A stretch of DNA of 64,000 nucleotides, taken from positions 22,090,871 to 22,154,870 of the forward strand of contig NC_092676.1 in the NCBI RefSeq assembly GCF_964355755.1, given 5' to 3'. This stretch comes from Antedon mediterranea (Eukaryota; Animalia; Echinodermata). Position 1 is the first letter of the stretch, and each line of letters begins with the position of its first letter. The notes under the pieces were generated by a model. That model had not been told where the DNA came from, made no database searches, and saw nothing but the letters and a program-made list of their open reading frames with translations. A program made the translations under genes and the position numbers. Shown piece after piece: positions 11,741 to 47,535 of this stretch.

Positions 11741-11810
11741 ATGTCTATCTTTCAAACCCTCACGCTGTTGGTACCATTGCTGTTTTCCAGCTGTTGTGTT
11801 TCCGTGAATG
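11741..11810 (+). CDS. LRR gene exon 1: signal peptide MSIFQTLTLLVPLLFSSCCVSVN
   Basis: ATG, hydrophobic core, donor G|GTAAGA (phase 1) that is in frame with the next exon. Confidence 0.8.
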
Positions 11811-14800
11811 GTAAGATTGATTTACCTTATTTTATTTTCAAACCGTTCAAATAAAGTGTCATTTATAACATATAGGGGCCTATAAAGTATAGGTTGCTGG
11901 CTTATGATATTGGTCAAACATTGAAGGTGTCTGTCCGTCCTCCTTGGTCATTTCTCTAAATTAAACGTTGCATTTCAATGTCACAGAATGTTCACATATC
12001 ACACCTATAACAAACGCTGCAAACAATAGTTCTTTATTTGCTAAGGAAGCCTATTGTTTTATTATTTACACATTACGTAGCTACACGAGGACTCTTGTTC
12101 AGTTTATAACATAAATGATGTCACTATTAATTGACTCAGGGCCTCTGTTGGCCTATTCAATTACAAAAACATTTATTTACGTTCAAAAGACAACGAGTTA
12201 TAAAAACAATAATGACAAGAGATAATTGAGAAAATGGACGAAAGCAATTGGAGAGTATTTTAAAAAAAAAATTACATATTTTTGAAAAATATACCATTCT
12301 AGTTTTATTATCCCGAATACTGAACGTGTCCATTGTAGGTCCTATACCATAATTGTAGTTAAAAATAAGTTTAATCTCGAGGTGCAATAGAAAACATTAT
12401 ACAGTATTTATAAAACAATTAAATTGTAATTCCAATATACGCTTAACGCTAAACTGGATATTAATTAATGTGTGCTAAAATGTGTATTCTATCCATGGAG
12501 GTAAAAATAAATACCTCCATGTTCTATCTATATCAAATTCACACACATTTCATATTGTAGGCCTACTGTAACGCTGAAAGCAATTACATACAATTGAAAG
12601 TAATTGTTTTAAAGCATTATCGTTGTTGTACTGCACACCGTATTTGTTTTTATTTCTGTATTTGTTTCTGTGTACCAATTTTCAGAAACTGGCTGCTGGC
12701 TGGTTTTGTATGTTTTATACCGTAGGCTTAACAATAAATAAATAACATATACATTTTACTTTTTAATATTTACTTCTTTACTTTTATTATTATATTTGTT
12801 TTAACAGAAGCAAGTGTATGCCCAAAAGGTTGCATTTGTAACTATGAGAGATATCGGGGCGCTCCTCCTAGTACTTGGTGTTATAATTGGAATACTACCA
12901 TACATACACAACTTGTATTGTACAATGAGGATAATCCTATACAAATATTGTAAGTAGTAGTTTTTGTTTTTGTATTTTAACATTAATATTTGTCTATCAC
13001 GAACAAATAACTTTCCCAGTGAGGGATAATAAATTATTTTTTTAAGTATATGATGAATAAGTATAATAAATAATTGTATCTTAATGCTCTTGAGCGTAAG
13101 TAAGAACCATTTCCTCTCCCATAAGCTCGATTCTGGAGGTCCACCAAAGCAAGAACTATAACGACTATAAAACCCAGCCAACATAACTCCCCTAATTAAC
13201 AAAAATGTAAAATAACCATTTATACATGTAAATAACTCAATCCAGAATAATTTCTGTAGACCAAAATCTAAGAATTCAATTGATAAAGGAACAGAAACAA
13301 AAATGGTGATGTCAATCAAGTGATTGGTATGAGAATTAAAATGTTAAAACTATCTTATAATATATTTTGACATCATTCAAGTACAAGAGCTGACATACCC
13401 ATGCAGTATATTGTTATGCTTTACCAATAAATACAAAATACGATATATTTGTTACCCCTCAGGCGCTGTATAGAACGGCCTGGCCAGAACGCGATTTTTT
13501 TTCGTACAGAATTTGGAGACCCCTTATGTTAAAGATAGCCGAAGTACTTCCTAAATATAACTCAACCTAACCCTTTAAATAATCTCTCTCACTATAAAGT
13601 AAAAAGAATTTACTGATGGGATTCGAACCCCATTCGACAACACAGACGGCTTGACAGAAAGGGTTTGCATTAGTGAATTGTAGATTAATTCTTACGTCAC
13701 ACCTTATTGATATGACTAATGAATATTCATGTTTATTTTGTGATGTTTCATGTACGAAAAGAAACATCGCGGCCGGAACCATAGGTACATGACGGGATCA
13801 TGACGGGACAACATTTTTACCAATATCTTATCTTATTTAAACATATCCACATGTGTGTAAATTAAATACGAAAGACCACAACAGACACACACGCAACAGT
13901 AATTTATAATATATAATGTGGTGTTAATAATAGTATATTATATTAAACATTAAATAGGGTAAAATTAGAACTTTAAAACCAGTGTGAATTCATCCAGCAT
14001 AAATAAATTAAGCTATTCATTTTGTCAGATAAAATTAGTAACAATTTAAAAAAATTACAGTAATATTATTATGTTAAATCATTAATTAATATTTCCATAA
14101 GATAGAAAATAGAACTTAAAAAAACTAGTGTAAATTCATCTGCATAAATGAATTTTAATATTTTTTTTTCAGATTAATTATAAGGAATCTTATTTTTTTT
14201 AATAGTATTTATTATTAGTAATAGGCCTATTAAATAATATTTTAGTTCATGCTTACAAATCTCTTAATTATTGTTTAGTAATTTTGTATGAGAATGAAAA
14301 TGTAAAGATTGTATTATTTTACCATGAAATTCAAGTGTAAGAGTTTTTATCTATGTTATACTTGCAATCTATTAATTAATTGTTGTCTGTGTATGAAAGT
14401 TAGAATGTTTAAATTATCTTGATTTACCATTCAGTATATATTGACATCATTTTAAGTTCAATAGTTATACCCATACAGTATAAAGTATAATGTAGTATTA
14501 CTAATGTAAATAATTTAAACATTTGAGGAAACAGAAAGACAGAATTATTGATATTGTAATTACTCCGTGTGCTTATTCTGTGCATTCTTTTTCTATTTGA
14601 GGTACGTGGATGGTAATCAAATAAGTACATTGCCAGCCAATACATTTGCTGGTTTGACAGCATTGAAATATCTGTAAGTGTATTGCTTTGTTTATGTATA
14701 TTGTCACAAAATGTATTTATGAATTTGCTTTTCTTTCATCCAATCTACATGGTAGATGGATGAAGATATTGTTTTTAACCACGTGACTATGTGGCGTAGG

Positions 14801-17800
14801 TTTGTTGTTTATGTATAATTTGTTATTGAGCTATGGAGAATTACTTCTTTTTTTTCCGAAATAAAAGATGAATGAATGAATGAATATTAATTAAGAGCAT
14901 GGTGTCTGTAAAAATCAAAGATTTGGTGGCAGATGTAAAAAAATGGATTTCTCTCAAATTTTTACCATGAATAGACATTTCAATAAAAAGCATAGGCTAT
15001 CTACAAAATTCATTTTAATTTTTAGCCTCCGTTGCCATGACAACGGTCAATTATCCAAATTTTGTTGTTTGTGCAATTTTTTCACAGATTTTCTATAGTG
15101 AAAAAGTACAAACTTGTATACTTATTTTAACCAAAAATACTTACAGTATACAGTTTTTGTTTATAGCAGTGTAAACAACATGTATTGAGTTCCATTTAAT
15201 GTAGAAAAAAAATAAATTACAAAATGGAGTTTGGTTGATACCATTATTTTAAAAAGGGGTGTTTTTAAAAAATATTTTTTTTATAAAAGTATACCTCATA
15301 AACGTACCTATAACTTCCAAAGTGGTGTTTTTAAATCAATGAGGTTTTTTAATTTGATAGTCAATAGGTTTGTCAACAATAATCACGAAAAAAACACTGG
15401 GGTAAATTTCGTACATAGGTTTTGTGTTGCCAGGAAAATACGAAAAATACAAAAAATATAACAAAGTATCAACAAACAAAACACATGAAACACAATTTAA
15501 ATATGGCTAATCCAATAATAAAATGTATATGTGGCTTGTCATAATGCTACTAGAGTCATACGAATAGTTTAGATAAAATAGGAGAATGTGTTGCCAGGTT
15601 TATTTCAATTAATTGCCAGAAAAACAGTATTTTGCATTGAAATATTTAGTTGATGGAAAATAATGTTAAACTTGGAAATAATTGCGTCAATGGTTTTTAT
15701 AAATTTTTTAATCTATTTTGTGTAAAGAGATACAGAAAGACCTCCCAAAAAATCTGACCTTGTAAATAGATCATTTGAGGTCAAAAGGGGTCAGCATGCA
15801 AAACAGGACAGGTCCCCACTTTACTACAACTATTAATGTTTGATCAAAATTTACAAGATAGTTCATAACATTCTCAACAATTTTCATATTTTACCTATAG
15901 TGTTACCCTAGCAACCATTTCTATGTGTAACTAAGGAAAGTAATTTTTAAAAAAACGTAAAAAATGGCGTTTTTATAAATACAAAGAATTGATTGCATTT
16001 GTAATTTTTCTCAATTTTACTTCTACTGCATTCCATTAATGAAAAACTTGACCTTGTAAATTCATTCATTTTGAGGTCAACATTTTACCATAGTAACTGT
16101 TTCTATGCGAAAATTTCAAAAAAATAAGGGTTTTTCATAAATACAAAACATTTTTTCTACATAGTTTTACATTTCTACTTTTTGCCAAATTTACTTTAAA
16201 TACTGAATCCTAATAATCTCAGAAAGAAAGTCTTGACGAATCTGAATAAAGGTAACAAATGATATTTAAATATGGAGTTTCATGAAAAAAAAAATTTTAC
16301 ATATTGAGGTCAAATGACATCAACATTTTACCTATAGTGTATTGTAGCAACTGTTACGTTTCTATACGTAACTAAGTACAATATTTTTAATATGGGGTTT
16401 CATGACTACAAACAATAGATTACATAGCTTTACTACCTTTTCCCAAATTTACTTATCTACTGAATCCCAGAAAATGTCTGACCTTGTGAAAGGGTCATTT
16501 GTTGGGTCAAGTTATGTCAAAATGTATTATTTATGTTATCTTACAGTAGAACCTGTTTCTATTAGGCTATGGGGCATGAGCCAAAAAGAGGCCTAGAAAA
16601 CGAATTTCGTGATCTCCTAACGGGGGGGAGGAAGATATTCACACAGTTTATAGTTAATAATTAGATTAACACAAATTCAGCCGGTCCCGCTTTCAAAAGT
16701 TACGCAATAAGTGTAATTTTAGGTGTAAAAAAATCGAATTTCTCAACATAAAGAAATACATAGAAATAGCGCCCTCTATTTTGTATATTTTCTGTTAGTG
16801 TTAGTACTGGATAAAATACAATCGTTCCATTGGAATAACTTATACTGTATCTTTCTTTCACATTTAACATGCAATATTTTTATCATAATTTTGAGATTAA
16901 TATTGTAGTCCTTGTAAGAAATGTATCTGTTAGTAAACCTTAATTAATATTTATTTAAGCACACTGAAAAGAAGATGCATTTTCAATCTTTATAATTCAT
17001 GACTATGCTGTCACAAAATATTTATTAATATTATCTCTCCTATATAATTGCAACTTTTTGTTTTCATTGGATGCATAACATAGAATTATAATCAATTAGT
17101 AATAAATCAAATGTTGCATTATTGTTTTCATTGTAGATGTATAACATAGAATTATAATCAATTAGTAACAAATAAATGAAATTATTACAGCAAAGTTTCT
17201 TATAATACTCCTGTTTCTTAATATTGCTTATCATCTCATGGGTTCTTTATTTTATACTTTCTCATGGTTCATCCGTTATGTTACAAAATAGTTAAGTTAC
17301 AAAATAGTTTAATATAAATTTACATTTTATACTAATAGGCATATTAATGTATTGTAAGCATCAAAGTAGAAAGTTTCTTATAATACTCCTGTGTCTTAAT
17401 ATCGCTTATCATCTCATGGTTCATCCATTACGTTACAAAATAGTTAAGTTACAAAATAGTTTAATATAAATTTACATTTTATAGGCATATTAATGTATTG
17501 TAAGCATCAAAGTAGAAAGTTTCTTATAATACTCCTGTGTCTTAATATTGCTTATCACCTCATGGGTTCTTTATTTATACTTTCTCATGGTTCATCCTTT
17601 ACGTTACAAAATAGTTAAGTTACAAAATAGTTTAATATAAATTTACATATTATAGGCCTATTACATTAAAATCATGTAGACCAAGTAAAATGAACATTTG
17701 TAAACCATAAATTACACTTAAACTACACTAAAAAGTTCTTCCTGCTCAAACTCTTCCTCATCATCGCTATCATCTCCATCAATTTCAAACATCTGATGTA

Positions 17801-20800
17801 TGAAGAAGATTGTTACAGTTTTTGCACGAGCATAATTCTGTACAAGAGAATCCTAAGGATACACAGCATTTTTCATTTGCAACCCCTTCATTGCATTTTG
17901 ACTTTTTACATGACCAGGATGACAATTCGAGAATGCTGTGTAGAGCAGGTTGCTTCTCCATCCAGTCAATTACGAGTTTATTATCGGCCATCTTCCACCC
18001 ATTTCCAACAGGAGATGGAGCATTTTGTTGTTGAATAAAACTAGCTTTGTGAATTGAAGCTTGAGAATTGGCATGCTGAATATGTTTATATACAGTATCT
18101 TTATTGTGTGGCATCATATTTTCAGCTCTTGCATTCATTGAGAACATTGCATACCTTACTTCATTGACAGATTGGTTCTTGTGACAATACTGTACAGCCT
18201 ACATACAAATGTTTCTAGATCACAAAGTAATTTATCTGAAAGTTTGCTGGTAGAATTGCCCAATGAAAAGAATGCATAAATTAGAGTTTTCCATTACGAG
18301 TTTCATTGCCTTCACTTTACCGTTCCCAAAAAAAGCGCTGACTGAATCGCATCCTGTGAAGCAATGTAGTCTAATTAATGCATTTGAAACATCATTTCCA
18401 ATATGTTCCTGAATAGCCTGCAGATGAATTGTTCGGAGATTAGCATCTTTTCCAGTATTGAAATATAGGTGAGAGCCATGCAGACTTTTGCAAAATGCCA
18501 ATCCAATAATAAAAACATCATCAGTGTCAGGGCTGATTGTAACAATATCTTTACCACCATGGTGTGCAGCATACTTCGCATACAGAAACATTCTGGTGTC
18601 TGCCTCTTCTTGATTAAAACTTTTCCATTTGATTCTGAAATAGAATTGCATAATAATGATGATGTTATGAATACATTTATTCCCTTGAGGTGATCTGCTT
18701 CACACATGCTTCATATTTGAAAGAAGAACTTGATTAGCAGATAAAAATGTTTTCAACTGTTCTGGAATTTGCTGTTCGGCTTTTGGTATTTTAATTGTTT
18801 GTGAGCCGATGGCTACTCTTCGACTTCGTTCAGCATTTTTTATGCAGTTTGTGTAATTGCTACATGTGATCGCAGAACTCTCCTTCGTTTAGTAACTCTT
18901 CTGTTGACTCTAATCCTTGAAATTCTTCTGTAAAAAAAAAGAATACTAATTAATATTTATGATTCTAAATGTTTGTGTAATAAATATAATAATATAATCA
19001 GTTCAGTATCATCTATACACTATTTAATATTGCAGTACAAGAATTCAAATAATATGTCTCAAATAACAACATAAAGCATCAGGTTGGTCCATTCTGTCCT
19101 TGCCTGAGGCTACTTGCCAAGGTTTGCATGCATTACCACATTGAATAATAAAATGCAAATGTTTTTTCCCAAGATGGAGGTACCATCAAACTAGGTCCAC
19201 TACACAATAATACTGGGGCCACCCTAGCTAGGCCTAATTCATATTGTAATTATGGGTTCATTTTTTTTTTGGCCCAGATATTTAAAAAAAATTATATACT
19301 AGGCCTAGCCTACTCTACGTAGGCTTAATACATATTAAAAAAATAAACTTTGTAGACTACCCACCGCCAACCTACCTAGCTAGGCTTTTTTTAGCAAGGC
19401 AGTATGATATGAACTAATTACTGGGCCTAGCTAGCCTAGGCTAGACCTATCATTAAAACAAATAGAATTTACCTTCTTCATTGTTGGATGAATTAACATC
19501 CTCTATTTCATATTTTACTGCTCGCCTTTGTTTGCTACAATCAGTGAAATATTGATAGCATCTTTTTATGACATCCAGCGTCGCCAGGAATTGGTAACAA
19601 GTATTGGTAAGCTCCTCTCAATATTTTCAAAAGGATTTGCGGCTACAAAACTCCTTTTGATTGCCGCTTAGATTGCACCAACTTTTTGTACACATTAAAA
19701 AAGTTTTCCATTTGGTTTCTGTGAATGTTAATATTGTCCCAGAATTAGATGTATTGTGTCAATAACAACGTTTTTGATCATCAGAAGATGACATCTTCCT
19801 GCTCCGCGCTCCAGAAGAACAACACATGTTTGTTTACAATCGTCTAGTAGCCGTATCCCGCTGTGTAAGGGAATCTGATTGGACAGTTACTGTTGCACAG
19901 CTCCATGAGTTAAAAGACAAATTTTTTGATTGGTCAATTGTGCGACCTGTACTGACCTACAAAAATTTTCTATATCGCAATAAAATACATATAAAAACAA
20001 ACATATTTCGTTGACGCGTAAAATTTACAAGCGGGACCGGCCAGTTTAAGGTTATCTATATTTTTGTTATAATTGTCATAGCAATTTTATTCTCCCCCCC
20101 GATAGGGGATCACGAAATGAAACGATAGAAGGCCATGCCCCATAGCCTATATGCGTAACTAAGGATAATTGTTTTTCGCGCCGCGGCTCTAGCCAGCTAT
20201 GTCCCAGGAGGACACATTCATTAATAAGCTGTTTCATAGCGGTAGCTTTAGTATCTAAGGCTGACAGTTTTGTGAATTTGGAAACTCGACTATAATTTAT
20301 AGGTAGCTGCTGGACCCAAAAAACGTCTGGGAGAAGAGAGTCTATATGAAAGCCTTTGCTGATAATACAGTATTATTGAGATGTAGACGGAAATCTGTAA
20401 AATCTTGATCAATAAATAATAACTTCGTTTTTGCTGTCAACCAGGCCGGTATTATAATAAGTCACTGTCAAATAATCATTCGATAATGGTCAAAACTTTA
20501 TTTTGGCTCTGTCAACATAAAGGGAGGTATTTACAATGACTTTCTTTGACTGTCAATCTAGGCCAATGTTATAATAATACGCCGTCAGATATTAAATCAT
20601 TGAAACAGTCCTCGTAAATTTTTTGTTGGTTATCAGATGCCGTGGGGGGTCCAATCAATTATCGTCAGAAGGTGAACAATCAGTCTAGGTAGCAGCAGCA
20701 GAACGCCTGCTCCATTAATTAATCCAGAAAAAGGTTTGTACATTATCTATTTGTTAATTAGCCTTCTCCTAACACAATTATATTTTCTTTAAAAAAAAGG

Positions 20801-26800: not shown

Positions 26801-29800
26801 GACTGAATTATGATATTACTTCGATATTAACAATTAAGGAGTTTTATTTTTTTTAATAATTTATATTAATAATATTAAATAATTGTGAAACTAATATCTC
26901 TTTCAAACTTTCCATTACTTAATTAATTGTAGCAATTTTGTATGAGAAATAAAATGTTAAAATTATCTTAATTTAACATAGTATATTATTATGTTGACAT
27001 TTGAGGAAACAGAGAGACACAATTGATATTGTAATTACTCCATGCTTATTCTGTGCATTCTTTTTCTATTTGAGGTCCTTGTATGGTAATCAAATAAGTA
27101 CATTGCCAGCCAATACATTTGCTAATTTGACAGCATTGGAAACTCTGTAAGTGTATTGCTTTTTTACATATTTACAAGTTTGTCTTTATTTACTAATTAT
27201 ATTACACATTAATAATTAATAACAATTATTATTTTTATAGGTTAAAAATAGAACTTTAAAAACAGAATTTTAATATTATTTTTTCAGGTTAATTATAAGG
27301 AGTCTTATTTTTTTTCAAATAGTATTTATTATTAGTATATTAAATTATATTTTAAACTATTATCGTGTCCATGCTTGCAAACACTTAATTATTGCTTAGT
27401 AATTTTGTATGAGAATGAAAATGTAAAACCTGCCCAGTGGGCACAGAACATAATTTCAACGTTGAATCAACGTTGAAATATAGTTTATTTGTTGAAATCA
27501 TGTTGTCAGCGTTTTTCAAATGTTGAATCAACGTTGAAATAACATTTTTTCCCTAACTATTTTTTTTACGTTTAGTAATAAACATTGAATCAACGTTGAA
27601 ATAACATTTTCTTTTTAACTAGTAATTTATGTTAATTAATAAATGTTGGTTTAACGTTGAAATAACATTGTCTTTCTAACAAATGTTTTACGTTAATTTA
27701 TCAATGTTGATCCAACGTTGAAATAACATTGTTTTTAAAACAAATGTTTTACGTTAATTTATAAATGTTGATTCAACGTTGAAATAACATTGTATTTTTA
27801 ACTAGAAATTTACGTTAATTTATCAATGTTGATCCAACGTTAAAATAACATTGTCCTTCTAACTAGTAATTTACGTTAATTTATCAATGTTGATTTAACG
27901 TTGAAATAACATTGTCTTTCTAACTAGTAATTTACGTTAATTTGTCAATGTTGATCCAACGTTGAAATAACATTGTATTTTTAACTAGAAATTTACGTTA
28001 ATTTATCAATGTTGATCCAACGTTAAAATCACATTGTATTTTTAACTCGAAATTTACGTTAATTTATCAATGTTGATCCAAAGTTGAAATAACATTGTAT
28101 TTTTAACTAGTAATTTACGTTAATTTATCAATGTTGATCCAACGTTGAAATAACATTGTATTTTTAACTAGTAATTTACGTTAATTTATCAATGTTGATC
28201 CAACGTTGAAATAACAATGTATTTTAAACTAGAAATTTACGTTAATTTATTAATGTTGATCCAACGTTGAAATAACATTGTATTTTTAACTAGAAATTTA
28301 CGTTACTTTATGAATGTTAATCCAACGTTGAAATAACATTGTCTTTTTAACTAGTAATTTAAGTTAATTTATCATTGTTGATCCAACGTTGAAATAACAT
28401 TGTCTTTCTAACTAGTAATTTACGTTAATTTATCAATGTTGATCCAACGTTAAAATCACATAGTATTTTTAACTAGAAATTTACGTTAATTTATCAATGT
28501 TGATCCAACGTTGAAATAACATTGTATTTTTAACTAGTAATTTACGTTAATTTATCAATGTTGATCCAACGTTAAAATCACATAGTATTTTTAACTAGAA
28601 ATTTACGTTAATTTATCAATGTTGATCCAACGTTGAAATAACATTGTATTTTAACTAGTAATTTACGTTAATTTATCAATGTTGATCCAACCTTGAAATA
28701 ACATTGTATTTTTAATTAATAATTTACGTTAATTTATCAATGTTGATCCAACGTTGAAATAACATTGTCTTTTTAACTAGTAATTTAAGTTAATTTATCA
28801 TTGTTGATCCAACGTTGAAATAACATTGTCTTTCTAACTAGTAATTTACGTTAATTTATCAATGTTGATCCAACGTTAAAATCACATAGTATTTTTAACT
28901 AGAAATTTACGTTAATTTATCAATGTTGATCCAACGTTGAAATAACATTGTATTTTTAACTAGTAATTTACGTTAATTTATCAATGTTGATCCAACGTTA
29001 AAATCACATAGTATTTTTAACTAGAAATTTACGTTAATTTATCAATGTTGATCCAACGTTGAAATAACATTGTATTTTAACTAGTAATTTACGTTAATTT
29101 ATCAATGTTGATCCAACCTTGAAATAACATTGTATTTTTAATTAATAATTTACGTTAATTTATCAATGTTGATCCAACGTTGAAATAACATTGTATTTTT
29201 AACTAGAAATTTACGTGAATTTATTAATGTTGATCCAACGTTGAAATAACATTGTATTTTTAACTAGAAATTTACGTTAATTTATTAATGTTGATCCAAC
29301 GTTGAAATAACATTGTCTTTCTAACTAGTAATTTACGTTGATTTATCAATGTTGATACAACGTTGAAATAACATTGTCTTTATATCTAGAAATTTACGTT
29401 AATTTATCAATGTTGATCCAACGTTGAAATAACATTGTATTTTTAACAAGAAATTTACATTAATTTATCAATGTTGATCCAACGTTGCAATAACATTGTA
29501 TTTTTAACTAGAAATTTACGTTAATTTATCAATGTTGATCCAACGTTGAAATAACATTGTCTTTCTAACTAGTAATTTACGTTGATTTATCAATGTTGAT
29601 CCAACGTTGAAATAACATTGTATTTCTAACTAGTAATTTTTTTCAAACAGTTATTATTTTTGTTTTTCAATGTTATTCCAACGTTATTTTAACGTTGAAA
29701 TCCAGTTGTCATTTTCAAATGACATGTTTTCAACGTTGAAAAACTCTTGAAATTATGTTGTTTTTTCAAACAATTATTATTTTTTTTTCAATGTTAATTA

Positions 29801-35800: not shown

Positions 35801-38800
35801 TGTTGTCTGTGTATGAAAGTTAGAATGTTTAAATTATCTTGATTTACCATTCAGTATATATTGACATCATTTTAAGTTCAATAGTTATACCCATACAGTA
35901 TAAAGTATAATGTAGTATTACTAATGTAAATAATTTAAACATTTGAGGATTCAAACAGAAAGACAAAATAATTTATATTGTAATTACTCCGTGTGCTTAT
36001 TCTGTGCATTCTTTTTCTATTTGAGGTACTTGTTTTATAATCAAATAAGTACATTGCCAGCCAATGCATTTGCTGGTTTGACAGCATTGAAAAGACTGTA
36101 AGTGTATTGCTTTGTTTATGTATATTGTCACAAAATGTATTTATATATTGTTGTTGTTTATGTATAATTTGTTATTGAGCTATGGAGAATTACTTTTTTT
36201 TTCGGAAATAAAAGATGAATGAATGAATGAATATTAATTAATATTTCAATAGGTTAAAATTAGAACGTTAAAACCAGTCTGAATTCATCCAGCATAAATA
36301 ATTACGCTATTCATTTTTGTCAGAAACAGTATTAACAATTGAAAATTATTACAGTATTATTATTGTGTTAATTCATATTTCTATAGGATAAAAAATAGGA
36401 CTCTAAAAACAGGTGTAAATTAATCCAGTAAATGACTGAATTATGATATTACTTCGATATTAACAATTAAGGAGTTTTATTTTTTTTTAATAATTTGTAT
36501 TAATAATATTAAATAATTGTGAAACTAATATCTCTTTCAAACTTTCAATTACTTAATTAATTGTAGCAATTTTGTATGAGAAATAAAATGTTAAAATTAT
36601 CTTAATTTAACATAGTATATAATTATGTTGACATCATTCAAGTAATAGAGTTGATACTAAACCCATGCAGTATAACTATAATGTTACTAATGTAGATAAT
36701 TTATACATTTGAGGAAACAGAGAGACACAAATAATTGATATTGTAATTACTCCATGCTTATTCTGTGCATTCTTTTTCTATTTGAGGTACTTGTCTGATA
36801 ATCAAATAAGTACATTGTCAGCCAATGCATTTGCTAATTTGACAGCATTGGAAGAACTGTAAGTGTATTGCTTTTTTACATATTTACAAGTTTGTCTTTA
36901 TTTACTAATTATATTACACATTAATAACAATTATTATTTTTATAGGTTAAAAATAGAACTTTAAAAACAGAATTTTAATATTATTTTTTCAGGTTAATTA
37001 TAAGGAGTCTTATTTTTTCTCAAATAGTATTTATTATTAGTATATTAAATTACATTTTAAACTATTATCTTGTCCATGCTTGCAATCACTTAATTATTGT
37101 TTAGTAATTTTGTATGAGAATGAAAATGTAAAACCTGTATTATTTTACCATGAAATTCAAGTGTAAGAGTTTTTATCTATGTTATACTTGCAATCTATTA
37201 ATTAATTGTTGTCTGTGTATGAAAGTTAGAATGTTTAAATTATCTTGATTTACCATTCAGTATATATTGACATCATTTTAAGTTCAATAGTTATACCCAT
37301 ACAGTATAAAGTATAATGTAGTATTACTAATGTAAATAATTTAAACATTTGAGGATTCAAACAGAAAGACAGAATTATTGATATTGTAATTACTCCATGT
37401 GCTTATTCTGTGCATTCTTTTTCTATTTGAGGTCCTTGTCTGATAATCAAATAAGTACATTGCCAGCCAATGCATTTGCTGGTTTGACAGCATTGAAAAG
37501 ACTGTAAGTGTATTGCTTTGTTTATGTATATTGTCACAAAATGTATTTATATATTGTTGTTGTTTATGTATAATTTGTTATTGAGCTATGGAGAATTACT
37601 TTTTTTTTTTCGAAATAAAAGATGAATGAATATTAATTAATATTTTAAAAGGTTAAAATTAGAACTTTCAAACCAGTGTGAATTCATCCAGCATAAATAA
37701 ATTACGCTATTCATTTTTTCAGATAAAATTACTAACAATTTAAAATTATTACAGGAATATTATTGTGTTAATTCATTAATTGATATTTCCATAGGATAAC
37801 AAATAGAATTTTAAAAACAAGTGTAAATTCATCTAGCATGAATGAATTTTAATATTATTTTTTTTTTTTCAGATTAATTATAAGGAATCTTATTTTTTTT
37901 TAATAGTATTTTTGTTATTAGTAATATTAAATAATATTTTAAACTATTATCTTGTTCATGCATGCAATCTCTTAATTATTGTTTAGTGATTTTGTATGAG
38001 AATGAAAATATAATGACTGTATTATTTTACCATGTGATTCAAGTTTACTCGCAATCTATTAATTAATATTGTTGTAGTATGTGTATGCAACTTAGAATGT
38101 TCAAATTATCTATCATTTAAGTACAAGAGTTGATACTAAACCCCATGCAGTATAACTATAATGTTACTAATGTAGATAATTTATACATTTGACGAAACAG
38201 AGAGACACAAATAATTGATATTGTAATTACTCCATGCTTATGCTGTGCATTCTTTTTCTATTTGAGGTACTTGTCTGATAATCAAATAAGTACATTGCCA
38301 GCCAATACATTTGCTAATTTGACAGCATTGGAAGAACTGTAAGTGTATTGCTTTTTTACATATTTACAAGTTTGTCTTATTTACACAATAATAACAATTA
38401 TTATTTTTATAGGTTAAAAATAGAACTTTAAAAACAGAATTTTAATATAATTTTTTCAGGTTAATTATAAGGAATCTTATTTTTTTTCAAATAGTATTTA
38501 TTATTAGTATATTAAATTATATTTTAAACTATTATCTTGTTCATGCATGCAATCACTGAATTATTGTTTAGTAATTTTGTATGAGAATGAAAATGTAAAG
38601 ATTGTATTATTTTACTATGATTTTCAAGTGTAAGAGTTTTTATCTATTTTATACTTGCAATCTATTAATTAATTGTTGTCTGTGTATGAAAGTTAGAATG
38701 TTTAAATTATCTTGATTTACCATTCAGTATATATTGACATCATTTTAAGTTCAATAGTTATACCCATACAGTATAAAGTATAATGTAGTATTACTAATGT

Positions 38801-41800
38801 AAATAATTTAAACAATTGAGGAAACAGAGAGACACAAATAATTGATATTGTAATTACTCCGTGTGCTTACTCTGTGCATTCTTTTTCTATTAAAGGTACT
38901 TGTATGATAATCAAATAAGTACATTGCCAGCCAATGCATTTGCTGGTTTGACAGCATTGAAATGGCTGTAAGTGTATTGCTTTGTTTATGTATATTTACA
39001 ATTTTATCTTAATTTACTTTTATATTACATTAATATAAATTAATATTTTAAAAGGTTAAAATTAGAACTTTCAAACCAGTGTGAATTCATCCAGCATAAA
39101 TAAATTACGCTTTTCATTTTGTCGGATACAAGTATTAACAATTTTAATATATTACAGGAATATTATTATGTTAAATCATTAATTGATATTTCCATAGGAT
39201 AAAAAATAGAATTTTAAAAACAAGTGTAAATTCATCTAGCATGAATGAATTTTAATATTTGTTTTTCAGATTAATTATAAGAAATCTTATTTTTTTTTAA
39301 TAGTATTTATTATTAGTAATAGGCCTATTAAATAATATTTTAAACTATTATCTTGTTCATTCTTACAAATCTCTTAATTATTGTTTAGTAATTTTGTATG
39401 AGAATGAAAATTTAATGACTGTATTATTCTACTATGATTTTCAAGTGTAAGAGTTTTTATCTATGTTATACTTGCAATCTATTAATTAATTGTTGTCTGT
39501 GTATGAAAGTTAGAATGTTTAAATTATCTTGATTTACCATTCAGTATATTGACATCATTTTAAGTTCAATAGTTATACCCATACAGTATAAAGTATAATG
39601 TAGTATTACTAATGTAAATAATTTAAACAATTGAGGAAACAGAAAGACAGAAATTATTGATATTGTATTTACTCCATGTGCTTACTCTGTGCATTCTTTT
39701 TCTATTGGAGGTACTTGGATGGTAATCAAATAAGTACATTGCCAGCCAATACATTTGCTGGTTTGACAGCATTGAAATATCTGTAAGTGTATTGCTTTGT
39801 TTATGTATATTGTCACAAAATGTATTTATGAATTTGCTTTTCCTTCATCCAATCTACATGGTAGATGGATGAAGATATTGTTTTTAATCACGTGACTATG
39901 TGGCGTAGGTTTTTTTAAATATATCTATATATATATATTGTTGTTGTTTATATATAATTTGTTATTGAGCTATGGAGAATTACTTCTTTTTCCGGAATAA
40001 AAGATGAATGAATGAATGAATATTGATTAATATTGCAATAGGTTAAAATTAGAACTTTAAAACCAGTGTGAATTCATCCAGCATTAATAAATTACGCTAT
40101 TCATTTTTGTCAGAAACAGTATTAACAATTGAAAATTATTACAGTATTGTTATTGTGTTAATTCATATTTCCATAGAATAAAAAATAGGACTTTAAAAAC
40201 AGGTGTACATTAATCCAGTAAATGACTGAATTATGATATTACTTCGATATTAACAATTAAGGAGTTTTATTTTTTTAAATAATTTGTATTAATAATATTA
40301 AATAATTATGAAACTAATATCTCTTTCAAACTTTCAATTACTTAATTAATTGTAGCAATGTTGTATGAGAAATAAAATGTTAAAATTATCTTAATTTAAC
40401 ATAGTATATATGTTGACATCATTCAAGTAATAAAGTTGACACTAAACCCATGCAGTATAACTATAATGTTACTAATGTAGATAATTTATACATTTGAGGA
40501 AACAGAGAGACACAAACAATTGATATTGTAATTACTTCATGCTTATTCTGTGCATTCTTTTTCTATTTGAGGTACTTGTATGAAAATCAAATAACTACAT
40601 TGCCAGCCAATACATTTGCTAATTTGACAACATTGGAAGAACTGTAAGTGTATTGCTTTTTTACATATTTACAAGTTTGTCTTTATTTACTAATTATATT
40701 ACACATTAATAACAATTATTATTTTTATAGGTTAAAAATAGAACTTTAAAAACAGAATTTTTAATATTATTTTTTCAGGTTAATTATAAGGAGTCTTATT
40801 TTTTTTCAAATAGTATTTATTATTAGTATATTAAATTATATTTTAAACTATTATCTTGTCCATGCTTGAAATCACTTAATTATTGTTTAGTAGTTTTGTA
40901 TGAGAATGAAAATGTAAAGATTGTATTATTTTACCATGAAATTCAAGTGTAAGAGTTTTTATCTATGTTATACTTGCAATCTATTAATTAATTGTTGTCT
41001 GTGTATGAAAGTTAGAATGTTTAAATTATCTTGATTTACCATTCAGTATATATTGACATCATTTTAAGTTCAATAGTTATACCCATACAGTATAAAGTAT
41101 AATGTAGTATTACTAATGTAAATAATTTAAACATTTGAGGAAACAGAAAGACACAAATAATTGATATTGTAATTACTCCATGTGCTTACTCTGTGCATTC
41201 TTTTTCTATTAAAGGTACTTGTATGATAATCAAATAAGTACATTGCCAGCCAATGCATTTGCTGGTTTGACAGCATTGAAATGGCTGTAAGTGTATTTCT
41301 TTGTTTATGTATATTTACAATTTTATCTTAATTTACTTTTATATTACATTAATATAAATTAATATTTCAAAAGGTTAAAATTAGAACTTTCAAACCAGTG
41401 TGAATTCATCCAGCATAAATAAATTAGGCTTTTCATTTTGTCAGATACAAGTATTAAAAATGTTATAATATTACAATAATATTATTGTGTTAATTCATTA
41501 ATTGATATTTCCATAGGATAAAAAATAGATTTTTAAAAACAAGAATAAATTCATCTAGCATGAATGAATTTTAATATTTGTTTTTCAGATTAATTATAAG
41601 GAATCTTATTTTTTTTAAATAGTATTTATTATTAGTAATATTAAATAATATTTTAAACTATTATCTTGTTCATGCATGCAATCTCTTAATTATTGTTTAG
41701 TGATTTTGTATGAGAATGAAAATTTAATGACTGTATTATTTTACCATGTGATTCTAGTTTACTTGCAATCTATTAATTAATATTGTTGTAGTATGTGTAT

Positions 41801-44800
41801 GCAAATTAGAATGTTCACATTATCTATCATTTAAGTACAAGAGTTGATACTAAACCCCATGCAGTATAACTATAATATTACTAATGTAGATAATTTATAC
41901 ATTTGACGAAACAGAGAGACACAAATAATTGATATTGTAATTACTCCATGCTTATGCTGTGCATTCTTTTTCTATTGGAGGTACTTGAATGATAATCAAA
42001 TAAGTACATTGCCAGCCAATGCATTTGCTGGTTTGACAGCATTGATACGCCTGTAAGTGTATTGCTTTGTCTACTTATATTTACAATTTTATCTTAATTT
42101 ACTATTTTATTATGCTAATATTAATTAATTTTTCAATAGGTTAAAATTAGGACTTTCAAACCAGTGTGAATTCATCCAGCATAAATAAATTAGGCTTTTC
42201 ATTTTGTCTGATACAAGTATTAACAATTTAAAAATATTGCATGTGTTTTTGTGTTAATTCATTAATTAATATTTCTATAGGATAAAAAAATACTAGAATT
42301 TAAAACAAAAGTGTAAATTCATCCAGCATGAATGAATTTTAATTTTTTTTTTTCAGATTAATTATAAGGAATCTTAATTTTTTTAAATAGTATTTATTAT
42401 TAGTAATATTAAATAATATTTTATTAAACTAATATCTTGTTCATGCTTGCAATCACTTAATTATTGTGTTTTATAATAATTGTGTATGAGAATGAAATTG
42501 TAAGACCTGTATTAGTTTACAATGAGATTCAAGAGTTTATCTATGTTATACTTGCAATATATTAATTAATTGTTGTCTGTGTATGAAAGTTAGAATGTTT
42601 AAATTATCTTGATTTACCATTTAGTATATATTGACATCATTTAAGTAGGCCTACAATAGCTGAAACTATAATACGCATGCAGTATAACTATGATGTAGTT
42701 ACTAATGTAAATAATCTAAAAATTTGAGGAAACAGAGACACAAATAATTGATTATTGTCTGCTTATTCTGTGCATTCTTTTTTTATTTGAGGTCCTTGTC
42801 TGATAATCAAATAAGTACATTGCCAGCCAATGCATTTGGTGATTTGACAGCATTGGAAAAACTGTGTATTGTTTTGTCTATTTATATTTACAATTTTATC
42901 TTAGTTTACTGTTATATTACATTAATATTAATTAATATTTCAATAGGTTAAAATTAGAAATTTAGACCATACCAGTCGTTGTCTGCGTTAGGGATGGTCG
43001 TATTCCTAGTAGCTTTCTTAGGTAAGTTTTCGGATATATCGCATTTCACGGGAGCTTTGAAAGAAACTTAGTTTTTTTTATAATAAATCTGAAAATAACA
43101 GTCTTGAAACTTCCAAAATGGTGTCAAAAGCAAGAAAAAATAGTAAACACTATATTCTAGGAATTATTTATAATAAAGTGACGTCACTAATAATTACTTT
43201 CAGGTGTTGAAATTAATAAATAGTGATATTTCTTGAGTTAATAATCGAAATTCGCTGATACTTGGTAAATAGCTTGTATACGGTGATAGGGTTGCCAGGG
43301 CATTTAAAGCTTTCGCCCAATTTGTTCGTATCGAATATGAACGACCCTGTTTCAATGTGCCCTTGTTTTTTCTTGTTTCAAAGTGCTCCGGTCTCCCCTA
43401 CTGAAATACGCACAGTAAACAAAAATGATACAATTAATATATTTTATGACACAATGTCCTGTGTTTTTTCATTATTTAGTCATTTTATGACTTAACATTT
43501 TTATTATTAATAATATTTTATCAGTATTGTTAGATCCATATTATTTGATGATTAATTTACTAGCATTACTATATTATATATATATATATATGTTTATTAA
43601 GCATATACTTATTGTTGTACCGGGATCCGGGTACATTGAAACACTTAAGTAGTTAATTTAATTAGCCTCCTCAACGAAAATTACCAAAGTTTTTTTTTTC
43701 TTTTTGACTTTAGTAATACTGAATGACACCCATTACTTGCTTTTGACACAATTTTGGAAGTTTCAAGACTAATATTTTCAGATTTATTATAAAAAAACTA
43801 AATTTCTTTCAAAGCTCCCGTGAAATGCGATATATCCGAAAACTTACCTAAGAAAGCTACTAGGAATACGACCATCCCTAACGCAGACAACGACTGGTAT
43901 GGTCGACGACGCGTCTTTAATCAAAGCAGAGAAATCTGCAACAATTATAACGGTGATAGAGGGTGTGTAAAGACAAACTGCAATGTAGCTCACATTTGTT
44001 TGTTATGTAAAGGCCACTCACAGTCAGCGTACAGGTGGTCAAAAAACGGACAAGGGCCTCAAGTGATAGGGGCCACTGCAAAACGTTAAACGAAACCGCT
44101 AACTTTAAAACCAAAGCTGGTTTGGTGTTGGTTTTGTTGGCAAACCAAAATCCACCTTTATTATTCAATTATCCATCCAATTCTCAACTTTAGTTCTGTT
44201 ATTTTTATTTCTATTTCGAAAACTCAGTCTACGCGCATTCAGCGTCTGCATAACCGTTTTTTACGCTACATCAGCCACAACCAGAATCCTGATTTTCATT
44301 TCCATGTCCAATCTGCTGAGTCCCGTAGAACCTTTTTTGATCTTGTTTTTTTTTGTATAAATGTCTTAATTCTTTATTTGACTGTAACTTAGTTAGTCAT
44401 TTTTATCTTAGAGTCCCTAGTCATCGTCTTAAAAGAAATCCTACTTTTCATATTCCTGTAGAGTAAATGTTTTTAAAAATGGTTTTATTAGTAGATTAAG
44501 TCAAACTTATAATTCTTTTACTTTAAGAAACCCTCAGTTAGATATCTTTATTAATAATTTCCGTAAGTTTCGCAACATTGTTAGTAGTTTAGTTTAATAT
44601 TTTGTTTTTGTATGTGTACGTGTTTGTCTGTGTTCCCTCCTGTAAGTGGTGAACCATGAGTTCACTGTTGGTTGGGAAATGAAATAAATAAATAAACTAC
44701 GACACAACAATAACTACCTCTATAAATATTGAACAGCTACATAAGCATATGGCACTGTGTCCAAACACGTATCTAAAGAACTAGTGTTAGACGGGTTGGT

Positions 44801-47535
44801 ATATGGTTTTTCAAATTTCAAATCACTTCCAGAGCAATCGATTGAATGTAAGAACTTAAAATCGTCTACAAGGTAACCCGATACGGTTGCTGAATTGATA
44901 AAAACAGAAGTTACCAAGGGATATTTATTAGACCCATAGAACGTTATTCCATACAAACAATATCGCATAAACCCTATCGGCATCGCAGAAGGCAAATATT
45001 CCCACAAAAAGAGACTAATCTTTGACTTGTCCGCAACCCGAGCTTGAACGAACTTATAGATATAGATCAGTATTCACTACAGTACGTCAAAATAGACGAC
45101 GCTATTAGAATTATAAAAAACCAGGGTCGTGGAGCATTATTGATAAAAACAGATATAACCGACGCATTCAAAATAATACCCATCCACCCAGGACTCAGAG
45201 GCTACCATGGAATTAAATGGAACGAACAATATTACTTCTTTAAACAATTTTTTTTTTTGCTGTCGTTCAAGTCCAAAAACATTTGACACACTATTTATTA
45301 TTTGGACAACATCATACAATACATTATTGTTTTGATTAACCCTCTACTCGTCTCTAATGATGATCTGGGTTCTTTAACTTGCATATAAATTTAAAATGAA
45401 TAAACTGGACCTACGGTTTATAGTCCTTATCCGTCCGAGAAGACTTGCCGATATTGTTGGCTCTTTAGGTATGGTAAACTGTGCCATTGCCTTAATCGCC
45501 CGTCCATTTGACTCGCTTCAATAAAAACATCAGCATAAGAGTTGACACTATACCCATGTTTTATTAAATGTTTTAAGCCACAGATAATAATAAATCATGA
45601 AAATTAATTTTTACAACTCAGTTATGGAATTAAAGTTTTATAAATGATTCTGATTTTGTACGGCATATACCAGAAAAATAAATAGTTTGTCTTTCAACAG
45701 GAGGTTAGAAAACAATACTATAACTACCATTGAACCAGATGCATTCTCTTCTTTTGCTTCATCACTTTCACATTTGTAAGTTAGCCCTGTAATTTATATA
45801 CAGTGTGAATTTTATTATTTGGTTTTCTTTTTCATGCTTTGATGAGATTAACTAAACAATTTAATAAATAATTTACAGTATAGCTTTGCGTCATCTGACG
45901 TGATCATACTTTATACTAAGTAGGCCTACATTTGAGAATACTTGAGGACTTCTCAGGATACGGTGGGCATTGAAGCGACGACTTCCAAAAAATCACAATA
46001 TTGGCATTCAATACCTCTTATAAACAAAGATTTACGATTTAATTGTTAATATCTGTAGTTGTCAAAATCTACTTATTGTTACTTCTGTACACAAAAAAAA
46101 GTATGTTGAAATATGTGAACTGAATATTAAAGAACATCGGGTAGAATATTACTGAGTAAATAAATAATTAATTAAATTTACCTACTACAACCATGATCAC
46201 CTGTTTTTTAAACCACTTTGGAAGTAACAAAAATCTGAAACCTTACCTTCTAACCATTATTATACTGGTATTTTCTATCTTTCGTTTTAAAAATCACTTT
46301 GCACGTAAAATAAAGAACTTTACAAAAATGATCACTTAATACTAACCGTAAAACTTATTATTTTTATTTTAGGTATCTCATAGGCAACAGTTTACGGGTT
46401 TACAGTGATAAGACGTTTAAAGAATTGGCAGTCTTAAGAGTATTGTAAGTAATGATAGATCTGCATTTGACAATTTGCTATTATCAAACTACTAGTTTTT
46501 AGTCGCGTGCAAACGCGACTCTTACAGCTCATTATGTCGGTGAGTCAGTCGGTAAACACTAACTCAAATGTGAGCACGCGACTGCAGCCATGTATATGGC
46601 CTTGTTAGTTACAGGGTAATGCCTGGGTAATACAGGGTAATTGTGTATTATAATCTTAAATACAAAACATAGTGGTTTACTGCAACTAAATTGATTTATT
46701 AAGTTACTATGTTTAGAAAGCTTGAGGAACGACGATAATAAATATCTTTAGGCTTACCTTTTAACTTTATTTGCCTATTCTAATCAATTTAATAAAAACT
46801 ATAGCGTTATTATAGTTTGTAGTTAAGTTGTCTTGTTGGTAAATTAAAATAATTCTAATGGTTCCGTCATAAGAGGGTTTATCATTGGTCATTAGCATTT
46901 CTAGGTATGACTTGACGTCATCACATTTCTGCAATTGTAACGTCATATGTTAGCTGTTTGATGCTTTGTAAGAAATAATTAAAAGTAGTTGGCTTAAAAA
47001 TTAAACTTGACTTTACGTCATCGCATTTTGCAATTGTAACGTCATACGCTAGATGTTTGATGTGTTGAAATCGAATATTTAAAGCTCTGTCTACACTATC
47101 AAACTAGTTTGACAAAGTATGATGTGCCCAAATAAGGTAATAATATGACCAAATATGGTAGTGATATGACACCATCATGTCAATATATGGGCACATCACA
47201 TGTTTTTTCACATAAAGTTTGATAGTGTAGACAAGGCTTAAGAGACTTTTCTACTTTTGATAAATATGTTGTGACAATCCTTTTTTTCTTTTTTATATAA
47301 TCAATTTTTTCTTTATATTTATTCATTTGGATGATGTTTAAAATATTGATTTTTATAAAGATTATACACTTATTAGACCTCTATTGCACACGCTTAATTT
47401 CACAGGCACTCAGACTTCCGACGGCTTTGTTGTCTTGTGAGTGTCAGTGTTTCCTGCGAACCCGTCGATGCCTCAGATTCTTGTGAAGATATAATGAATA
47501 GGCATAATCATTTGCATAGTTGTCCGCTTAACTAA
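11741..47535 (+). CDS. Secreted multi-LRR protein derived from an LGR/RXFP(GRL101)-type receptor: SP + LRRNT + 16 cassette LRRs + 2 constant LRRs + hinge (546 aa if all exons are included)
   Basis: 21 exons join in frame (70+142+16x72+75+72+130 = 1641 nt) and end at TAA 47533-47535. Individual exons are listed separately. Confidence 0.8.
12808..12949 (+). CDS. LRR gene exon 2: LRRNT cap (EASVCPKGCICNYERYRGAPPSTWCYNW...NPIQIL)
   Basis: Acceptor ttaacag, CPxxCxC...C motif, donor TT|GTAAGT (phase 2). Confidence 0.85.
13468..13915. mobile_element. Probable non-autonomous insertion (Helitron/SINE-like) containing a tRNA B-box-like segment
   Basis: Interrupts sequence homologous to the LRR repeat unit; contains gggattcgaaccc at about 13618 and ends in acagacacacacg...tttataatata. 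Family unclear. Confidence 0.3.
14602..14673 (+). CDS. LRR cassette 1: YVDGNQISTLPANTFAGLTALKYL
   Basis: 72 nt, acceptor GAG, donor GTAAGT. Confidence 0.85.
16563..20149 (-). mobile_element. AcademX-type transposon, internally deleted, nested in the Sola3 element
   Basis: TIR TAGGCTATGGGGCATG, 3-bp TSD TAT (16560-16562, 20150-20152). Minus-strand remnants QEEADTRM, SPDTDDV, HCFTGCDSVSAFFGNGK and a Cys-rich tail. Confidence 0.85.
17190..17650. repeat. Tandem repeat, 3 copies of about 150-180 bp, inside the Academ element
   Basis: aaagtttcttataatactcctgt recurs at about 17192, 17369 and 17516. Confidence 0.8.
21985..22260. repeat. Minisatellite, unit about 56 bp
   Basis: ggcttat(c/a)aacaaataaatactt...caaaatgtaaa in about 5 copies; related copies at 21120-21430. 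Confidence 0.75.
22932..23452. mobile_element. Tc1/mariner (Tigger/pogo-like) MITE
   Basis: TA|CAGTTGAACCTCCCGTAAGTGGCCACC at the left; degenerate GAGGTGGCCGCTG|TA at the right. Confidence 0.55.
25637..25708 (+). CDS. LRR cassette 2: YLSYNQISTLSANAFVGLTALEEL
   Basis: 72 nt, GAG/GTAAGT. Confidence 0.85.
26282..26353 (+). CDS. LRR cassette 3: HLNGNQISTLPANAFAGLTALKYL
   Basis: 72 nt, GAG/GTAAGT. Confidence 0.85.
27075..27146 (+). CDS. LRR cassette 4: SLYGNQISTLPANTFANLTALETL
   Basis: 72 nt, GAG/GTAAGT. Confidence 0.85.
27460..29640. repeat. 61-bp satellite array (about 35 copies) in the left arm of the EnSpm element
   Basis: Unit aatgttgatccaacgttgaaataacattgtatttttaactagtaatttacgttaatttatc, period 61. 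Confidence 0.95.
30960..31949. mobile_element. Nested TIR element (about 85-bp TIR, apparent 5-bp TSD AATAT)
   Basis: TACGCCGTGGTTAGGATTCCGGCA... is inverted at 31866-31949. Superfamily not determined. Confidence 0.75.
31649..31827. mobile_element. Harbinger-like MITE, family 2
   Basis: TIR AGCTTGGTTCCCACTAG; near-identical copy at 50480-50663. Confidence 0.75.
33100..33650. repeat. 112-bp tandem repeat (about 5 copies) in the right arm of the EnSpm element
   Basis: atgttgattcaacgttgacattt at 33235, 33347, 33459 and 33571. Confidence 0.9.
33993..34064 (+). CDS. LRR cassette 5: YLSDNQISTLPANAFAGLTALKRL
   Basis: 72 nt, GAG/GTAAGT. Confidence 0.85.
34653..35200. mobile_element. Kolobok-like MITE
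   Basis: TIR AGATGTATTGTCCC, TTAA TSD; empty site cttaatTTAAcatagt in sister units. Confidence 0.85.
35381..35452 (+). CDS. LRR cassette 6: YLYDNQISTLSANAFVGLTALEEL
   Basis: 72 nt, GAG/GTAAGT. Confidence 0.85.
36026..36097 (+). CDS. LRR cassette 7: YLFYNQISTLPANAFAGLTALKRL
   Basis: 72 nt, GAG/GTAAGT. Confidence 0.85.
36787..36858 (+). CDS. LRR cassette 8: YLSDNQISTLSANAFANLTALEEL
   Basis: 72 nt, GAG/GTAAGT. Confidence 0.85.
37432..37503 (+). CDS. LRR cassette 9: SLSDNQISTLPANAFAGLTALKRL
   Basis: 72 nt, GAG/GTAAGT. Confidence 0.85.
38267..38338 (+). CDS. LRR cassette 10: YLSDNQISTLPANTFANLTALEEL
   Basis: 72 nt, GAG/GTAAGT. Confidence 0.85.
38896..38967 (+). CDS. LRR cassette 11: YLYDNQISTLPANAFAGLTALKWL
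   Basis: 72 nt, AAG/GTAAGT. Confidence 0.85.
39711..39782 (+). CDS. LRR cassette 12: YLDGNQISTLPANTFAGLTALKYL
   Basis: 72 nt, GAG/GTAAGT. Confidence 0.85.
40572..40643 (+). CDS. LRR cassette 13: YLYENQITTLPANTFANLTTLEEL
   Basis: 72 nt, GAG/GTAAGT. Confidence 0.85.
41215..41286 (+). CDS. LRR cassette 14: YLYDNQISTLPANAFAGLTALKWL (identical to cassette 11)
   Basis: 72 nt, AAG/GTAAGT. Confidence 0.85.
41981..42052 (+). CDS. LRR cassette 15: YLNDNQISTLPANAFAGLTALIRL
   Basis: 72 nt, GAG/GTAAGT. Confidence 0.85.
42792..42863 (+). CDS. LRR cassette 16: SLSDNQISTLPANAFGDLTALEKL (damaged donor)
   Basis: 72 nt, GAG acceptor; a 4-nt deletion reduces the donor to GTGTAT. Confidence 0.6.
42965..43904. 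mobile_element. TIR element with about 105-bp near-perfect inverted repeats and no TSD
   Basis: GACCATACCAGTCGTTGTCTGCGTTAGGGATGG... is inverted at about 43800-43904. Confidence 0.8.
43905..45290 (+). mobile_element. DIRS/Ngaro-like retrotransposon relic (gag zinc finger + RT), interrupted by a probable LINE 3' end at about 44090-44697
   Basis: REICNNYN...C...C...HICLLC; then YRINPIGIAEGKYSHKKRLIFDLS and LQYVKIDDAIRII...KTDITDAFKIIPIHP, with stops and frameshifts. Confidence 0.7.
45701..45775 (+). CDS. Constant LRR exon: RLENNTITTIEPDAFSSFASSLSHL
   Basis: 75 nt, canonical CAG acceptor, GTAAGT donor, phase 2-2. Confidence 0.85.
46373..46444 (+). CDS. Constant LRR exon: YLIGNSLRVYSDKTFKELAVLRVL
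   Basis: 72 nt, TACTAAC branch point at 46340, TAG acceptor, GTAAGT donor. Confidence 0.85.
47083..47238. mobile_element. Harbinger-like MITE, family 1, complete copy
   Basis: TAA TSD on both sides; TIR AGCTCTGTCTACACTATCAAAC. Confidence 0.8.
47406..47535 (+). CDS. Terminal exon: LGR type-C hinge HSDFRRLCCLVSVSVSCEPVDASDSCEDIMNR + short frameshift tail, stop
   Basis: CAG acceptor, phase 2; CC...C.P.D...SCED(L/I)M is the RXFP/GRL101 hinge pattern. Confidence 0.75.

Follow-up and report, generated by a model that had tools for sequence, protein, structure and literature searches.

A feather-star gene with sixteen near-identical leucine-rich repeat exons and a decayed transmembrane region, likely derived from a relaxin-receptor-type LGR

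The window analysed here is a stretch of 64,000 nucleotides (nt) from the feather star Antedon mediterranea (assembly GCF_964355755.1, contig NC_092676.1, forward-strand positions 22,090,871 to 22,154,870; coordinates below are counted from its first letter). It is AT-rich animal DNA without N, and its forward strand holds a gene of leucine-rich repeat (LRR) exons that is related to XP_071963857.1, an uncharacterized A. mediterranea protein with LRRs and a seven-transmembrane (7TM) domain (P0005 below). In a 72-nt scan of the window one LRR exon turns up in exactly 16 copies, here called cassettes, which span 14602-42863 and start at 14602, 25637, 26282, 27075, 33993, 35381, 36026, 36787, 37432, 38267, 38896, 39711, 40572, 41215, 41981 and 42792. 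Each consists of 1+69+2 nt (phase 2-2), and none of the 16 contains a stop. An initial annotation of this DNA had described a signal peptide and LRRNT, 16 stop-free, phase 2-2, 72-nt exons of one repeat each, and then constant LRR and hinge exons; this layout holds, except that cassettes 11 and 14 are identical, so that the 16 copies comprise 15 distinct cassettes. The signal-peptide, LRRNT, 16 cassette, c1, c2 and hinge exons, whose borders are predictions from sequence and homology, join into 1641 nt that encode 546 amino acids with no internal stop. The parts of the gene are as follows (TM, transmembrane helix; ICL and ECL, intracellular and extracellular loop):

11741..11810, + strand: exon 1, predicted signal peptide, 23 codons with a phase-1 end (ATG, hydrophobic stretch, GTAAGA donor; the P0005 N-terminus differs)
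12808..12949, + strand: exon 2, LRRNT cap (14/40 identical to P0005 341-381; tblastn E 0.003 within the window)
14602..14673, + strand: LRR cassette 1, 72 nt (72-nt scan; weak Pfam LRR_8 match, E 0.006)
25637..27146, + strand: LRR cassettes 2-4, at 25637, 26282 and 27075 (72-nt scan)
33993..42052, + strand: LRR cassettes 5-15, with introns of 557-1316 nt (72-nt scan)
42792..42863, + strand: LRR cassette 16, with a weakened donor, GTGTAT (72-nt scan, donor comparison)
45701..45775, + strand: constant LRR exon c1, 75 nt (13/24 identical to P0005 527-550)
46373..46444, + strand: constant LRR exon c2, 72 nt (9/23 identical to P0005 552-574)
47406..47535, + strand: last coding exon, a short type-C-like LGR hinge and then a frameshifted 10-residue tail with TAA (13/31 identical to P0005 576-607; the P0005 hinge aligns to the RXFP1 hinge)
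47497..47883, + strand: decayed 7TM remnant with pieces of TM1, ICL1, TM2, ECL1, ECL2 and TM5 (frame-aware alignment to P0005)

Our searches show that single exons of this gene are too short to find relatives: the 42-residue hinge exon alone has no match in Pfam, a word-index protein search, PDB, 1.84 billion representatives or the ESM Atlas, the TM1 remnant alone gives one chance match only against PDB, and a single cassette with its read-through tail returns 17 candidates, none at E 0.001. A profile was therefore built from 15 of the 16 cassettes (the duplicate 14 was omitted), and it finds 57 proteins among 1544 candidates. Of these 57 listed proteins, P0005 is the one most identical to the cassette (83%) and the sole entry with a 7tm_1 domain. 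It is colinear with exon 2, the cassettes, c1, c2, the hinge and the TM remnant of the window gene, so that the two share the order LRRNT, near-identical 24-residue repeats, two distinct last LRRs, hinge and TM1-TM5; they differ in that P0005 holds 6 repeats of the cassette type (16 in the window gene), has TM1-TM6 intact and carries unrelated sequence at both ends. The constant exons are 35-54% identical to P0005 and the window cassettes 74% identical to its repeats (best-match mean), and both sets of repeats vary at the same strand positions. By the identity of the constant exons the window gene is a paralogue-level relative of P0005. Several features of the P0005 model itself should be recorded. 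It is apparently chimeric, with about 340 unrelated residues before the LRRNT, and its sequence past TM6 has what we take to be a resemblance to a retroelement endonuclease; it has no NPxxY motif, and this paralogue may itself be disrupted. NCBIfam gives only generic LRR matches on it, far below the cut-offs.

Among solved structures the best LRR plus 7TM match of P0005 is the relaxin receptor RXFP1, on which its LRR-hinge-7TM stretch scores 167.8 bits (PDB 7tmw) against 96.8 on LGR4, and both its short, type-C hinge and its 7TM are closest to RXFP; the type-C placement of the window gene goes via the structure scores of P0005. The window gene itself has the signal peptide, LRRNT and tandem LRR ectodomain of an LGR by descent, and a cysteine-rich hinge between the LRRs and the 7TM remnant (13/31 to that of P0005, itself aligning to RXFP1). 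It has no LDLa module, since exon 1 joins exon 2 in frame without one, and Pfam finds no LDLa in P0005 either. The locus therefore likely descends from an LDLa-less, type-C-like (relaxin-receptor-type) LGR that belongs to an expanded family (for background on LGRs see the relevant sections of PMC4079206 and PMC6267866). The suggestion that the gene had evolved independently is not supported, as every part of it is homologous to an LGR-type G protein-coupled receptor (GPCR), and the supposedly unrelated constant exons c1, c2 and hinge have their homologues in P0005. LGR genes ordinarily have one LRR to each phase-2 exon, as the sections of PMC11378527 and PMC8286064 on their layout describe, and the frame symmetry of the cassettes is accordingly inherited rather than invented.

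The sequence at 47497-47883, immediately after the hinge, can be aligned to TM1-TM5 of P0005 with a frame-aware score of 120.5 (34-46.5 in five shuffles), and this remnant, which the initial annotation missed, contains 5 frame changes and 3 stops (at 47653, 47683 and 47869). A search of 47400-53000 and of the rest of the window did not turn up TM3-4 or TM6-7, and an intact 7TM exon further downstream was sought without success. Having no intact rhodopsin-family 7TM in its predicted frame, the window gene is not a functional LGR receptor. The predicted 546-residue product has no hydrophobic helix downstream of the signal peptide and so would be secreted, as had been proposed.

DNA contigs of two samples, X1 and S2, were compared over 47250-48250; contig depths were not used as copy numbers. 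An X1 contig (depth 3.5; a second individual) crosses the hinge/TM1 break over 47409-47558 with 4 other letters and no gaps. In S2, two allelic contigs over 47535-47683 join into one over 47654-47905, and their X2 depths of 157 and 161, against 282 upon merging, indicate that both haplotypes carry the 7TM remnant; one S2 haplotype of the remnant differs by 5 inserted letters. Because the X1 contig bridges the break and both S2 allelic contigs carry the remnant, the break can be put down neither to an error of assembly nor to one individual. Other contigs have loose ends which, translated by hand, contain GNSVVIISR, SDLLMAVYL and HYRGRYSE; these match the TM1, TM2 and ECL1 motifs of P0005 and thus point to intact-looking paralogues in the same organism. 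The X1 contigs are DNA-like in that they cover introns and transposons and show no splice joints among the 15 of 627 joints that were listed; they say nothing on expression.

The distribution of the lesions is uneven. The 387-nt 7TM remnant has 8 frame changes or stops and the 450 nt of non-cassette ectodomain exons have none (P 0.002 on the assumption that lesions are evenly spread, or 0.02 with just 5 of them counted), and the 16 cassettes, all stop-free and 72 nt long, are likewise free of lesions. Because the lesions cluster in the remnant and none lie in ectodomain exons, we infer that constraint on the ectodomain outlasted the 7TM.

Variation among the cassettes is concentrated in replacement changes, with pN at 0.128 and pS at 0.020. 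Codon 23, which holds 8 of the 29 variants, was excluded from the silent/replacement count, having been hit more than once and giving an artificial stop as the majority codon of its column; outside it there are 20 replacement variants and 1 silent variant (P 0.004-0.03). The concave codons (the five x positions of xxLxLxx, 15 nt) hold 19 of the 29 variants and the seven structural codons (21 nt) hold 1, and concave bases diverge by 32% on average, against 8.4% for flanking intron and 4.4% for other exon bases. Between units 1 and 5, none of 206 flank bases differ and 9 of 72 exon bases do. An AlphaFold model of the P0005 ectodomain (single sequence, pLDDT 66) puts cassette codons 23 and 1 on the beta-strand, and in the part of PMC3341825 that concerns LRR structure the beta-strand face is the ligand face. 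These patterns support selection on the predicted binding (concave) face. Up to 9 replacement-type bases differ even between units whose flanks are 99-100% identical, and the changes in the units therefore appear to be younger than the shared 7TM break.

The array also bears marks of how it grew. Doublet blocks of two cassettes with their introns are 97-99% identical (25088-26400 and 36238-37550 at 97.4%, 33697-34111 and 37136-37550 at 99.0%), the two alternating flank types are recombined into mosaics in units 11, 14, 15 and 16, and in a four-gamete test on the cassette exon 48 of 91 informative site pairs are incompatible. Growth by unequal crossover, as the initial annotation proposed, is supported by these observations; the flank mosaics and incompatible site pairs would be due either to recurrent mutation or to short conversion in addition to unequal crossover. 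Cassettes that are nearer to P0005 than the constant exons are would fit traffic of cassettes between paralogues. A variant at codon 14 is carried by most of the contig depth at 41256 and by the P0005 repeats, but by none of the 16 window cassettes, which argues that exchange with those other copies is not free.

Fifteen of the 16 cassette donors are GTAAGT; that of cassette 16 is GTGTAT, through a 4-nt loss. At acceptor position -3 all 16 cassettes have G or A (GAG in 14, AAG in 2), and the four constant internal or last exons all have CAG or TAG. In cassette 16, whose normal donor is lost, read-through (42792-42951) would give a 28-residue hydrophobic tail and then a stop. The tail reaches a Kyte-Doolittle 19-mer maximum of 2.14, and the other 15 cassettes stop at once on read-through; it could give a membrane- or glycosylphosphatidylinositol-anchored form, or could be a chance product of AT-rich intron. 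Mutually exclusive splicing of the Dscam type is defined by docking/selector RNA pairing or by steric exclusion. Among exact matches to two candidate docking regions the longest complement is 10-13 nt (9-12 in shuffles), and introns of at least 557 nt impose no steric exclusion; we reject pairing of the Dscam type. Plain skipping of LRR exons has precedents, as such exons of ambulacrarian LGRs are "sometimes skipped" (PMC8286064, in its account of their splicing) and the LRR exons of ROCO genes are alternatively spliced (PMC11378527, likewise).

On balance we favour the view that this is a live, or very recently live, type-C-like LGR gene whose 7TM has been destroyed and which would encode a secreted, variable LRR solenoid diversified in the germ line. 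About 520-550 residues long, the solenoid would use its concave face to bind variable ligands from outside. The one-LRR exon and its intron would form the unit that multiplies and recombines in the germ line, presumably by unequal crossover and short conversion, with selection preserving scaffold residues and favouring new concave ones, and the array would have continued to diversify after the 7TM was lost. If multiplication and recombination are germ-line events and selection is ongoing, most of the diversity should be found between alleles and between paralogues. For the ligand, our first guess is microbial or self/non-self molecules; our second is that the product would act as a decoy for the ligands of the intact paralogues, as soluble LGR ectodomains do. 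Some exon skipping may be predicted at the weak cassette acceptors. A number of points weigh against this view. The expression and secretion of the product are predictions from genomic sequence. The cassette copies are related rather than independent samples, the tests on them are simple counts, and the concave positions were fixed after the alignment had been seen; the lesion test, for its part, treats lesions as independent and uses exons that were recognised partly for being intact. P0005 is a single, apparently chimeric gene model, and the LDLa module that defines type C is absent. The donor of cassette 16 is damaged and all cassette acceptors are weak. Conversion from intact paralogues could import variants and so mimic selection in a dead gene. 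Finally, the other S2 allele has 7 substitutions within the 22 nt of 47475-47496, which alter five residues at the conserved hinge end, and also 7 gap letters whose position the alignment does not show. The substitution cluster could reflect relaxed constraint, conversion or a hidden deletion.

Several of these points would be explained if the locus were a pseudogene of an LGR-like GPCR, in which the selected pattern came from intact paralogues or from before the break and the array is now drifting, perhaps as a reservoir for conversion. The destroyed 7TM, the damaged cassette-16 donor and weak acceptors, three insertions within the array (described below), the changed hinge motif of the other S2 allele, the presence of several paralogue contigs, and cassettes that lie nearer to P0005 than the constant exons do all fit such a history, which we regard as a tentative possibility to be taken seriously. 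It does not easily account for the absence of lesions from 450 nt of constant ectodomain exons and from all 16 cassettes when the 7TM remnant has 8, nor for changes that postdate the 7TM break by the evidence of units with 99-100% identical flanks and up to 9 replacement-type differences, and the absence of the codon-14 variant of other copies from all 16 window cassettes indicates that conversion has not been free. A different kind of rival, put forward by the initial annotation and compatible with the germ-line reading, is an expressed gene with combinatorial cassette skipping that would provide a repertoire of solenoids per animal or cell. The uniform 72-nt, phase 2-2 cassettes would permit it, there are the precedents in LGR and ROCO LRR exons (PMC8286064, PMC11378527, in the passages noted above), and RAG acceptors in all 16 cassettes and in none of the four constant exons would favour it, though these may count as one inherited trait; however, LGR genes are frame-symmetrical by default, so that this feature calls for no explanation of its own, neither docking/selector complementarity above that of shuffles nor steric exclusion is found, and cassettes that differ at few positions would make many subsets near-equivalent, so we think such a repertoire unlikely.

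Somatic DNA assembly into an incomplete germline gene, as in the variable lymphocyte receptors (VLRs) of lampreys, is hardly credible here. The 24-residue LRR units between constant ends and the variability at the same strand positions do recall VLRs, and the initial annotation drew this parallel; but the cassettes are ordered, one-strand exons with their own splice sites inside a complete gene and the constant ends are LGR-derived, whereas in VLRs the germline gene is incomplete and conversion copies in donors that lie at its flanks (PMC11160967, where it describes VLR assembly). That the array is partly an assembly artefact of over-expanded or mis-ordered repeats is very improbable: the longest contig piece in the array among those listed is 413 nt, which leaves the number and order of cassettes without independent confirmation, yet there are 15 distinct exon sequences with distinct flank mosaics and unique insertions, the window has no N, and contigs of two samples lie across the array. 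Going beyond the germ-line reading, one may also imagine a feather-star variable-LRR system from the relaxin-receptor-type lineage, in which membrane-bound and secreted members share or swap cassettes, with concave-face selection, exon skipping and a repertoire per animal. We consider this speculative and rather doubtful; if true, such a shared-cassette system would be the first VLR-like repertoire in an echinoderm, built on a hormone-receptor scaffold.

LGRs are known as hormone receptors that are conserved and for the most part single-copy. With type C LGRs (RXFP1, GRL101) the window gene shares the short cysteine hinge and 7TM, via P0005, and one LRR per phase-2 exon (PMC11378527); it differs in having no LDLa, in its loss of the 7TM at the DNA level, in being multi-copy, and in its 18 LRRs against the 7-9 of type C LGRs (PMC9545775). 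The portion of PMC8286064 on these receptors gives one orthologue of each type-C LGR per ambulacrarian. Lgr4-ED and LGR7-truncate are likewise secreted LGR ectodomains (by prediction in our case), with a proposed role in ligand absorption (PMC4154783, PMC3477067, as far as these treat the two forms), but they are splice variants of intact, conserved genes, whereas the window gene itself has lost its 7TM and its LRRs are diversifying. Lineage-specific LGR expansions occur in Trichoplax (41) and Nematostella (9), whose receptors are also non-canonical, with many LRRs and no known ligand; the section of PMC9545775 devoted to them describes neither hypervariable arrays of near-identical exons nor loss of the 7TM. 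The LRR exons of brown-algal ROCO genes are a recombination hot spot, include inactivated exons and are under positive selection on the concave face (PMC3341825 and PMC11378527, in their parts on these exons). In its 72-nt phase-2 one-LRR exons, recombination and concave-face selection the window gene works like these arrays, to which the initial annotation had compared it for Ectocarpus; it differs in the protein, as ROCO proteins are intracellular GTPases with shown splice variants and ours is an extracellular GPCR derivative read from genomic sequence. The likeness to lamprey VLRs is confined to 24-residue LRR modules and concave-face variation, as these are assembled somatically, in a deaminase-dependent way, from flanking donors into an incomplete gene and the window holds a complete 546-residue frame. 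Since one-LRR exons, unequal crossover and concave-face selection have already been described in brown algae, what is new here lies in the lineage and the parent family rather than in the mechanism. Our literature search found no description of a crinoid LGR family of this kind; crinoid LGRs may be listed in the supplements to PMC8286064 and PMC4079206, to which this search did not extend, nor did it extend to most subscription journals. A multi-copy LGR branch with arms-race LRR exons and at least one predicted secreted member suggests that the scaffold has been co-opted for changing targets in the least studied echinoderm class, and offers a gene family on which one could test how LRR recognition is diversified without somatic rearrangement in invertebrate deuterostomes.

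Three insertions lie in introns of the array:

14894..25088: 10.2-kb insertion with terminal inverted repeats, which parts cassette 1 from the rest (the repeat flank breaks off at 14894 and is taken up again at 25088; matching ends)
27430..33697: 6.3-kb insertion with terminal inverted repeats, after cassette 4 (61-nt and 112-nt tandem arrays, matching ends)
34652-35200: small third insertion after cassette 5, 550 nt, resembling a miniature inverted-repeat transposable element, with inverted ends

The 10.2-kb element contains decayed transposase-like frames on the minus strand at 17785-19100, and similar-looking decayed frames occur at 2662-6475 (Pfam gives no match on 4762-6021). The 6.3-kb element has the 61-nt array (about 35 copies) at one end, the 112-nt array at the other and a 114-nt inverted repeat inside. 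Copies related to the small insertion are found at 32215-32403 and at 57615-57960/61624-61980. Right after cassette 16, at 42965-45290, a 173-nt inverted repeat (96.5%) precedes what is left of a decayed reverse transcriptase (RVT_1 match weak, E 0.018). Downstream of the LRR gene, 48850-56760 holds a convergent multi-exon gene on the minus strand. It has long exons of low complexity, acidic in composition, together with a repeat of 8 residues (24 nt x 8 at 56342-56532), and similar short exons recur at 60500-63950. Between these, at 58664-59973 on the minus strand, are frameshifted reverse-transcriptase-like frames, presumably of the LINE (long interspersed nuclear element) type.

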